Notes: generated by a model from the sequence alone, not told the origin. DNA of 64,000 nt from Escherichia coli 042 (GCF_000027125.1 NC_017626.1), one strand, 5' to 3'. Shown: positions 62,344-63,459, counted from the first letter of the stretch. Translations and numbers: made by a program.

Positions 62344-63459
62344 ATGAAAAGAAAAGTTCTGGCAATGCTGGTCCCGGCGTTATTAGTTGCTGGCGCAGCA
62401 AATGCGGCTGAAATCTATAATAAAGATGGCAATAAAGTTGATTTCTACGGCAAGATGGTTGGCGAACGCATCTGGTCAAATACTGATGATAATAACAGCG
62501 AAAACGAAGATACCTCCTATGCTCGTTTCGGTGTTAAAGGTGAAACCCAAATCACCAGCGAACTGACTGGTTTCGGTCAGTTTGAATACAACCTCGACGC
62601 CAGCAAACCTGAAGGTGAAAACCAGGAAAAAACCCGTTTAACCTTCGCCGGTTTGAAATATAACGAGTTAGGATCATTTGACTATGGCCGTAACTACGGT
62701 GTTGCTTATGATGCCGCAGCTTATACCGATATGTTAGTTGAATGGGGCGGCGATTCCTGGGCTTCCGCTGACAACTTCATGAATGGTCGTACCAACGGTG
62801 TTGCAACCTACCGTAACTATGATTTCTTTGGCCTGGTTGATGGTCTTGATTTTGCGATTCAGTACCAAGGCAAAAACAGCAACCGTAGCACTAAGAAACA
62901 AAATGGTGACGGCTATGCGTTGTCTGTAGACTATAACATCAATGGTTTTGGTATCGTTGGTGCATATAGCAAATCTGATCGCACCAACGATCAAGTTGCC
63001 GATGGAAACGGTTCAAATGCTGAACTGTGGTCATTGGCTGCAAAGTATGACGCGAACAATGTCTACGCAGCTGTAATGTACGGTGAAACTCGTAATATGA
63101 CTCCGGGTTCTATTGATACAGGTGTTGCCGATCGAGAAGGCAATACAATAATGCGTGATCAACTTATCAATGAAACCCAGAACTTTGAAGCGGTTGTTCA
63201 GTATCAATTCGACTTTGGTCTGCGTCCGTCCTTAGGTTATGTGTACTCTAAAGGTAAAGATATCAAAGGTGTACCTGGACATAGATATGTTGACGCTGAC
63301 CGTGTGAACTACATTGAAGTTGGTACCTGGTACTACTTCAATAAGAACATGAACGTTTATACTGCATACAAATTCAACATGCTGGATAAAGATGACGCCG
63401 CCATTACTGGCGCAGCAGCTGATGACCAGTTTGCAGTTGGTATCGTCTACCAGTTCTAA
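62344..63459 (+). CDS. yedS: OmpC/OmpF-family general porin (YedS-like), apparently intact
   Basis: ORF contains signal peptide [21 protein letters not shown] followed by [16 protein letters not shown]... and the C-terminal porin signature ...FAVGIVYQF; start trimmed to the ATG at 62344 (371 aa). Confidence 0.9.

Follow-up and report, generated by a model that had tools for sequence, protein, structure and literature searches.

Which porin stands in the slot where Escherichia coli K-12 keeps a broken one, and is it simply the same gene unbroken? The slot lies towards the end of a 64,000-nucleotide (nt) stretch from E. coli 042 (GCF_000027125.1, NC_017626.1), the whole of which is here called the window, where the gene order is vsr-dcm-yedJ-drpB(yedR)-rseX-porin with hchA just past the window end. 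In K-12 the order is unchanged (PMC7648144 likewise lists yedS-rseX-drpB-yedJ), and the slot gene there, the pseudogene yedS (b1964-b1966), is annotated 'porin OmpC; frameshifted; internal stop'; on translation it meets a TAG at about codon 162 and changes frame. The original prediction, made from the window sequence alone, was of an apparently intact YedS-like porin of the OmpC family whose K-12 counterpart is a fragmented pseudogene, and on the counterpart it was right.

The window gene, called class A below, is one of at least five deeply diverged alleles of the slot, and the answer offered here is that it likely specifies a general-diffusion porin that is trimeric and functional, held silent and selected at the cell surface. 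The components of this reading differ in firmness. That the gene encodes a functional-looking porin of an OmpK35/OmpF-like lineage we hold to be highly probable; the regulatory and selective components, drawn by analogy, are about evenly poised between right and wrong.

The porin gene and its product

A single open frame runs from 62314 to 63459 on the plus strand, and from its in-frame ATG at 62344 it encodes 371 amino acids (aa), MKRKVLAML...GIVYQF. The RefSeq coding sequence WP_000824355.1 ('porin') starts at exactly this ATG in E. coli strain 135, from chicken faeces, whose DNA is 100% identical over 1.8 kb, and a Shine-Dalgarno sequence, AAGGGA at 62331-62336, lies 7 nt 5' of it. An alternative start at 62314, giving 381 aa, was rejected because 62344 has in its favour the Shine-Dalgarno sequence, the start used by RefSeq and conservation in other genera. 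A Sec signal peptide and a C-terminal Phe (...VYQF) were both read by eye. Residues 1-371 align without a break with OmpK35 (9hn1; E = 8.7e-145), so the gene hides no frameshift or premature stop; together with the single frame and the RefSeq record this bears out the uninterrupted 371-aa porin, with signal peptide and aromatic terminus, that had been foreseen. The 90%-identity cluster of the protein has 1,321 member sequences. The parts of the gene referred to below are as follows.

62344-63459, plus strand: porin coding sequence ('class A' allele, yedS slot), 371 aa and stop, identical to RefSeq WP_000824355.1
62344-62406, plus strand: signal peptide, cleaved between ANA and AE, read by eye from the sequence
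62686-62802, plus strand: loop L3 (the constriction loop), residues 115-153, with the motif VEWGGD and acidic D129/E133, from the AlphaFold2 model
63100-63174, plus strand: surface loop L6 in an extended form, residues ~253-277, exceeding that of class B by 14 aa and the most divergent segment
63502-63533, plus strand: intrinsic terminator of the porin gene, where the conserved flank restarts

PF00267 (Pfam Porin_1) is recorded for the identical protein, and 48 porin sequences in the PDB match it at E <= 2.8e-74, the best being OmpK35 9hn1. An AlphaFold2 model (48 homologues; predicted local distance difference test, pLDDT, 80.7; predicted template modelling score, pTM, 0.76) has 16 strands, with L3 internal and bearing two short helices. 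When the model was compared with the PDB by Foldseek, OmpK35 5o77 came first, with a template modelling (TM) score of 0.92 on the target, and Omp35 and OmpF ranked next (OmpF 1opf, 0.89). In an alignment to OmpF all of the constriction residues are kept: K16, R42, R82, R132, D113 and E117 of OmpF are K37, R61, R98, R149, D129 and E133 here. By sequence and predicted fold, then, the class A product is a bona fide enterobacterial general-diffusion porin of the OmpF/OmpC/PhoE family.

To which member of that family does it belong? Its scores against the NCBIfam models are 449.9 bits for OmpF (NF007446, equivalog; cut-off 583), 417.4 for OmpC (NF007841, subfamily; cut-off 484) and 414.4 for PhoE (cut-off 599), all three under the cut-off, and it is therefore a general porin outside the OmpF, OmpC and PhoE orthologous groups. 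The L3 motif is VEWGGD in class A and in OmpK35, and PEFGGD in OmpF, OmpC, OmpN, PhoE and K-12-type YedS. The label 'OmpC-family' has accordingly to be given up, since the OmpF model outscores that of OmpC, the best structural match is OmpK35 and the L3 motif is not PEFGGD. Neither of the nearest known porins is a full match: OmpK35, which is the OmpF orthologue of Klebsiella pneumoniae and the best among solved structures, has VEWGGD-W in common with class A but is only 63% identical, and OmpF, with every constriction residue in common, only 60%. The ompF locus itself (asnS-ompF-aspC) sits elsewhere, and the class A gene is not at that locus.

Allele classes and lineages of the slot

Other occupants of the slot were gathered from E. 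coli genomes and fall into classes B, C, D and E. In the list below, identities are those of the proteins to class A, and synonymous divergence from class A (dS) is by the Nei-Gojobori method, as are the non-synonymous values (dN) used later, over the mature coding region. Frequencies are megablast counts, the mature coding part serving as query and 5,426 complete E. coli genomes as database; this set is biased towards clinical isolates, and the figures are rough.

Class A: 371 aa; 902 genomes at at least 95% identity, ~17% (776 at at least 99%)
Class B: 357 aa; 90% identity, dS 0.59; ~717 genomes at ~88% identity, ~13%
Class C: 352 aa; 68% identity, dS 1.5; 1,140 genomes at at least 80% coverage, 21%
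Class D family: 395 aa; 61% identity, dS 1.6; 1,653 genomes at at least 80% coverage, 30%
Class E: 387 aa; 62% identity, dS saturated; 366 genomes at at least 80% coverage, 7%

The slot thus holds at least five allele classes in E. coli, and an intact gene there is common. In a small sample the full-length class A genes are intact, among them an ST131 (sequence type 131) gene and two that encode the same protein as the window gene, and O25b:H4-ST131 strains are among the class A carriers; a similarly small sample of class D has five intact genes and three pseudogenes (K-12, O157:H7 and one pig isolate). By these tallies an intact slot gene is the rule and K-12 the exception. Decay also occurs within class A: the copy in E. 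coli LR-58-1, only partly covered, carries a frameshift and has a transposase fragment directly at its 3' end.

Class D is the intact K-12 type, with alleles of 395-404 aa; PGAP labels its products 'porin OmpC' and those of class A only 'porin', and some sources list class D as 'outer membrane protein S1' or 'yedS'. Class A has with K-12 yedS and class D a common slot, an identical signal peptide, the same 5' untranslated region and promoter block, and membership of the same protein family. Class D, however, has long inserts in L4, L5 and L7, and PEFGGD, whereas class A is without those inserts and has the long L6 and VEWGGD. The 61% identity of the class A protein to class D is no closer a relationship than that to the paralogues (OmpF 60%, OmpC 57%, PhoE 58%), so that asking whether the gene is nearer to yedS or to ompC/ompF ends in a tie. 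'YedS-like' is therefore apt for the position, yedJ-drpB-rseX-porin-hchA, and not for the protein, which stands in a separate clade: on sequence, class A is an occupant of the slot but not a K-12-type YedS.

A neighbour-joining tree with bootstrap values separates two lineages. The first unites classes A and B with E. fergusonii (92%), then Citrobacter and Enterobacter (81%), K. oxytoca (73%) and class C (77%), with OmpK35 as sister. The second holds classes D and E with the slot porins of E. albertii, E. whittamii and cryptic-clade Escherichia, near OmpN/OmpC (support 50%). Judged by sequence, class A is not a repaired K-12 pseudogene; the K-12 copy belongs to the second, OmpN/OmpC-like lineage.

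Relatives of class A occupy the same slot in other species. Its protein is 82% identical to the slot porin of E. fergusonii, 75% to those of Citrobacter and of Enterobacter hormaechei and 69% to that of K. oxytoca, each encoded directly 3' of (dcm)-yedJ-(drpB), uncharacterised, and annotated 'porin' or 'outer membrane pore protein F'; all four have a shorter L6 than class A. The promoter block and signal-peptide DNA of the window have homologous counterparts upstream in Citrobacter (80% over 224 bp), Enterobacter (75%) and Klebsiella (86% over the last 99 bp), and dS between class A and the Citrobacter gene is 1.8, that is, saturated. From this sharing of a slot by E. fergusonii, Citrobacter, Enterobacter and K. 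oxytoca it follows that class A would be a positional orthologue inherited within the Enterobacteriaceae. A scan of the Citrobacter, Enterobacter and Klebsiella slots gave no rseX at the Rfam gathering score.

E. fergusonii carries another porin gene, at locus positions 5663-6772, right behind that of the slot porin; its 369-aa product is of NmpC/OmpD type and has a different signal peptide. A trkH-like gene stands after it, before hchA, and dcm is absent from the upstream block. An ancestral tandem pair of the two lineages was considered here and rejected, the second porin being an NmpC/OmpD-like paralogue beside trkH and not of K-12 type. For the ompS1 locus of Salmonella, a contig scan anchored on YedJ gave only Escherichia species and a few distant taxa, and a homologue search with the K-12-type allele returned a match list filled by E. 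coli sequences; the link to Salmonella ompS1 is in consequence a literature-based one.

How sharply is the polymorphism bounded? In sliding comparisons with the other alleles, the DNA of class A is 95-100% identical as far as ~62410, where the signal peptide ends; across the mature coding sequence identity is 53-77%, with 34-44% in the L6 segment, and from ~63500 it is back to 95-99%. In the L6 stretch even classes A and B are only 38% identical in DNA. The flanking genes, compared between the window and K-12, have dS of 0.053 (yedJ), 0.081 (drpB) and 0.098 (dcm), and the first 23 codons show no DNA difference among all E. coli classes and E. albertii. Between A and B divergence is mosaic, dS being 0.14 at codons 24-90, ~2.0 at 211-250 and 0.69 at 331-371. 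A second polymorphic patch, upstream of rseX at 61800-61990, comes in two haplotypes, 75-89% identical, which do not follow porin class: the window and a class D strain are alike, as are K-12 and classes B and C. Recombination has therefore shuffled the region.

The class A porin is under purifying selection. Between A and B, dN/dS is 0.04 in the barrel and 0.24 in the loops; within class A two comparisons gave 16 synonymous and three non-synonymous differences, and one strain has nine synonymous differences with an identical protein.

The upstream DNA and its possible regulators

The neighbouring genes and the elements 5' of the porin are listed here.

60678-61373, minus strand: yedJ (HD phosphohydrolase), the slot anchor conserved across genera
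61413-61694, minus strand: drpB (yedR), which bounds the slot on its left, from the annotation of a 100%-identical record
61943-62032, plus strand: rseX, Hfq-binding small RNA (sRNA), Rfam RF01401, 97.8 bits against a gathering score of 50, model positions 1-94
62046-62061, plus strand: CRP-type palindrome TGTGCGCGCGATCACA, one mismatch, between the rseX terminator and the porin promoter
62100-62299, no strand: AT-rich tract (GC 21%), by composition a likely H-NS/StpA nucleation region that would silence the porin promoter
62180-62343, plus strand: near-invariant promoter block and 5' untranslated region, with a sigma-70-like site TTGTTA-16-TAAAAT at 62223-62250 and AAGGGA at 62331-62336
62347-62364, plus strand: predicted RybB seed-pairing site AAAAGAAAAGUUCUGGCA, codons 2-7 (+4..+21)

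The AT-rich upstream DNA that had been pointed out is evident, with the GC content of 21% at 62100-62299 following 27-39% over 61800-62099, and in composition the tract is of the kind that H-NS binds upstream of quiescent porins. The candidate sRNA that had been noticed in this DNA is real and already known: it is RseX, the window copy matching the full Rfam model, with an intrinsic terminator at 62007-62027, at the position published for K-12. Relative to K-12 it differs at 8 nt in its 5' third (TGAT->ATTA, AACC->GCTT), which adds a small predicted hairpin. Upstream of the class B-E alleles scanned rseX is likewise present, at 95.8-97.8 bits. In wild-type K-12 RseX is undetectable; it appears in hns mutants, and more so in hns/stpA double mutants (PMC8313858).

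Is there a precedent for a porin kept in such surroundings? OmpS1 and OmpS2 of Salmonella are quiescent, silenced by H-NS/StpA and activated by LeuO/OmpR, and their mutants are attenuated in mice (PMC4264507). They offer the same working model, a minor porin behind an AT-rich silenced promoter, and some authors and databases equate yedS with ompS1; the name OmpS1, however, is attached to class D proteins and not to the class A lineage. By likeness to these porins and to the neighbouring RseX, the class A porin would normally be silent through H-NS/StpA acting on the 79%-AT tract, and would be released only under special conditions by antagonism of the LeuO or OmpR type. The segment 62195-62237 (GAAACATTTTGAAAT...TACATTTGTTACATG) resembles what we take to be OmpR boxes.

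Repression in envelope stress may be superimposed. A duplex search with the 16-nt RybB seed, read from rybB of K-12, puts a predicted pairing site in codons 2-7 at -17.2 kcal/mol (z = -3.55; one of 300 shuffles as good), and ompN and the slot porins of Citrobacter, Enterobacter and Klebsiella have predicted sites at the corresponding place; in K-12, yedS(ompS1) mRNA falls 2.5-fold on sigma-E induction (PMC2731931). The porin mRNA would then be repressed by RybB under such stress. A duplex search for pairing of RseX with its neighbouring porin found nothing better than shuffles (z = -0.45).

The stretch 62180-62412 is ~99-100% identical across the E. coli classes, E. albertii, E. whittamii and cryptic clades. 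In E. albertii ~3 of its 233 positions differ, the 100 bp just upstream being heavily diverged and the YedJ protein 86% identical. This near-invariance, together with the selection ratios given above, argues against a dead gene.

Some features of the surroundings stand apart from the porin question. A perfect CRP-type palindrome, TGTGATAAAGGTCACA, lies at 61754-61769, before drpB, and in-vitro CRP footprints have been obtained in K-12 at positions matching both palindromes (PMC12871828). Between the porin terminator and hchA, at 63674-63904 on the minus strand, is a putative 76-aa open reading frame (ORF), recorded as the hypothetical protein WP_154675818.1 in the identical genome; one class D strain has an extra ORF for a hypothetical protein of 116 aa between porin and hchA (positions 3312-3662 of that locus), so the downstream spacer also varies between strains.

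The explanations weighed, and what the slot may mean

How else might an intact class A gene have come to stand here? It could be the plain intact form of K-12 yedS, of YedS/OmpS1 type and OmpC-like, with the K-12 copy as its decayed version. The common slot and the identical signal peptide and leader are what such descent would leave, but the protein is about as far from intact K-12-type alleles as from OmpF, at a dS of 1.6, and differs in loops, L3 motif and clade; intact K-12-type alleles, moreover, themselves exist, and the idea is refuted at the sequence level and has next to no credence left. There is more to commend a recent horizontal import, in which a gene from another enterobacterial genus or from a mobile element would have displaced a K-12-type yedS by recombination in the conserved flanks: the boundaries at the signal peptide end and at the terminator are sharp, A and B form a mosaic, the upstream haplotype is unlinked to porin class, and the lineage is common to Citrobacter, Enterobacter and Klebsiella. 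Yet the closest protein outside Escherichia is only 75% identical, with dS saturated; the nearest relative is that of E. fergusonii, in the same slot, in a tree that roughly follows species order; and class A is present in about 900 genomes with synonymous diversity of its own. Recent import is thus unlikely, although there may have been older imports through the conserved flanks. As to mobile elements, an origin from them was rejected, phage porins reaching at most 53% identity and those of true plasmids at most 64%; a single 87% 'plasmid' match is a 4.9-Mb chromosome. Two PLSDB entries, NZ_CP134663.1 and NZ_OL790696.1 ('plasmids' of 4.8-4.9 Mb), are evidently E. coli chromosomes and give rise to spurious plasmid matches.

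Alternatively class A might be intact by chance, a cryptic relic that is never expressed and is heading the way of the K-12 and O157:H7 copies. An AT-rich tract that would silence it, an RseX neighbour that is not detectable in wild-type K-12 (PMC8313858), and the slot pseudogenes of K-12, O157:H7, the pig isolate of class D and the LR-58-1 copy of class A all fit such a fate. A relic, though, would not be expected to show a barrel dN/dS of 0.04 or nine synonymous changes to no non-synonymous one in a single strain, to keep every pore-lining residue, or to sit behind a regulatory block near-invariant across Escherichia species, and mutants in the quiescent Salmonella porins are attenuated in mice (PMC4264507). 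We regard a relic as very improbable, less so than simple descent with K-12 yedS and more so than recent import.

Several points weigh against the reading we prefer, that of a functional, silenced and surface-selected class A porin. The nodes that link class C and OmpK35 to the first lineage have only 77% support, and the link of the second lineage to OmpN only 50%. The slot identity of Salmonella ompS1 comes from naming in papers and databases. Control of the porin by H-NS, LeuO, OmpR and RybB is read across from neighbours and relatives and may not carry over. MicF, which Warner and colleagues (2013) are said to have found to control YedS, was rejected as a regulator of the class A leader (-70..+45), where the predicted duplex has -10.2 kcal/mol and z = +0.8, versus -27.1 kcal/mol and z = -5.0 for ompF. 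Finally, the pattern that balancing selection would produce is also what a series of imports through recombination in the conserved flanks would leave.

What, then, would the class A porin do for its bearer? When made, it would presumably form an OmpK35-like pore, with the VEWGGD constriction, presenting a distinct surface, in particular the long L6 hairpin, and the surface differences between classes may be maintained by selection from phages, colicins or antibodies. Going further, and as speculation that is more doubtful than probable, the yedS slot might be a long-lived 'porin cassette holder', in which a near-invariant module of regulatory region, leader and signal peptide (with RseX 5' in Escherichia) drives one or another of several anciently diverged barrels of two lineages, held at intermediate frequencies by frequency-dependent selection from phages, colicins and antibodies. 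RseX represses ompC and ompA mRNAs and shares the H-NS-silenced island, for which reason de-silencing may, we propose, exchange the major porins for the slot porin in one step. In class A strains such as ST131 that porin would be OmpK35-like, and the exchange may alter beta-lactam and carbapenem entry.

How much of this is new? The yedS locus, the RseX sRNA and the protein family are all already known, and the exact protein is already in RefSeq. Since an intact gene in the slot is common, the finding of one is modest; of greater interest is how deep and how sharply bounded the polymorphism is. In the full-text literature searched, a body that leaves subscription journals mostly uncovered, neither the polymorphism of two lineages and five classes nor a function for the class A lineage was described, and searches there on the RefSeq accessions and on ompS1 with pangenome found nothing either. 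A porin fragment of an O26:H11 strain with '50% homology with YedS', which may or may not stem from this slot, figures in a proteomics paper (PMC9731836), and the intergenic DNA between yedR and yedS has served to mark host source (PMC11267920).

Porins set the rate at which beta-lactams and carbapenems enter the cell; phages and colicins use them as receptors, and antibodies are directed at them. YedS, of an allele class that may or may not be A, was reportedly linked with carbapenems by Warner and colleagues in 2013. Results obtained with K-12-type YedS are not transferable to the class A allele. The pandemic ST131 lineage carries an OmpK35-like slot porin. If the slot porins are expressed in vivo, or after loss of OmpF and OmpC, strains of E. 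coli would differ in which of five widely differing pores is available to them, and that would bear on how porin-loss resistance is interpreted, on phage host range and on what 'yedS' stands for as a marker.

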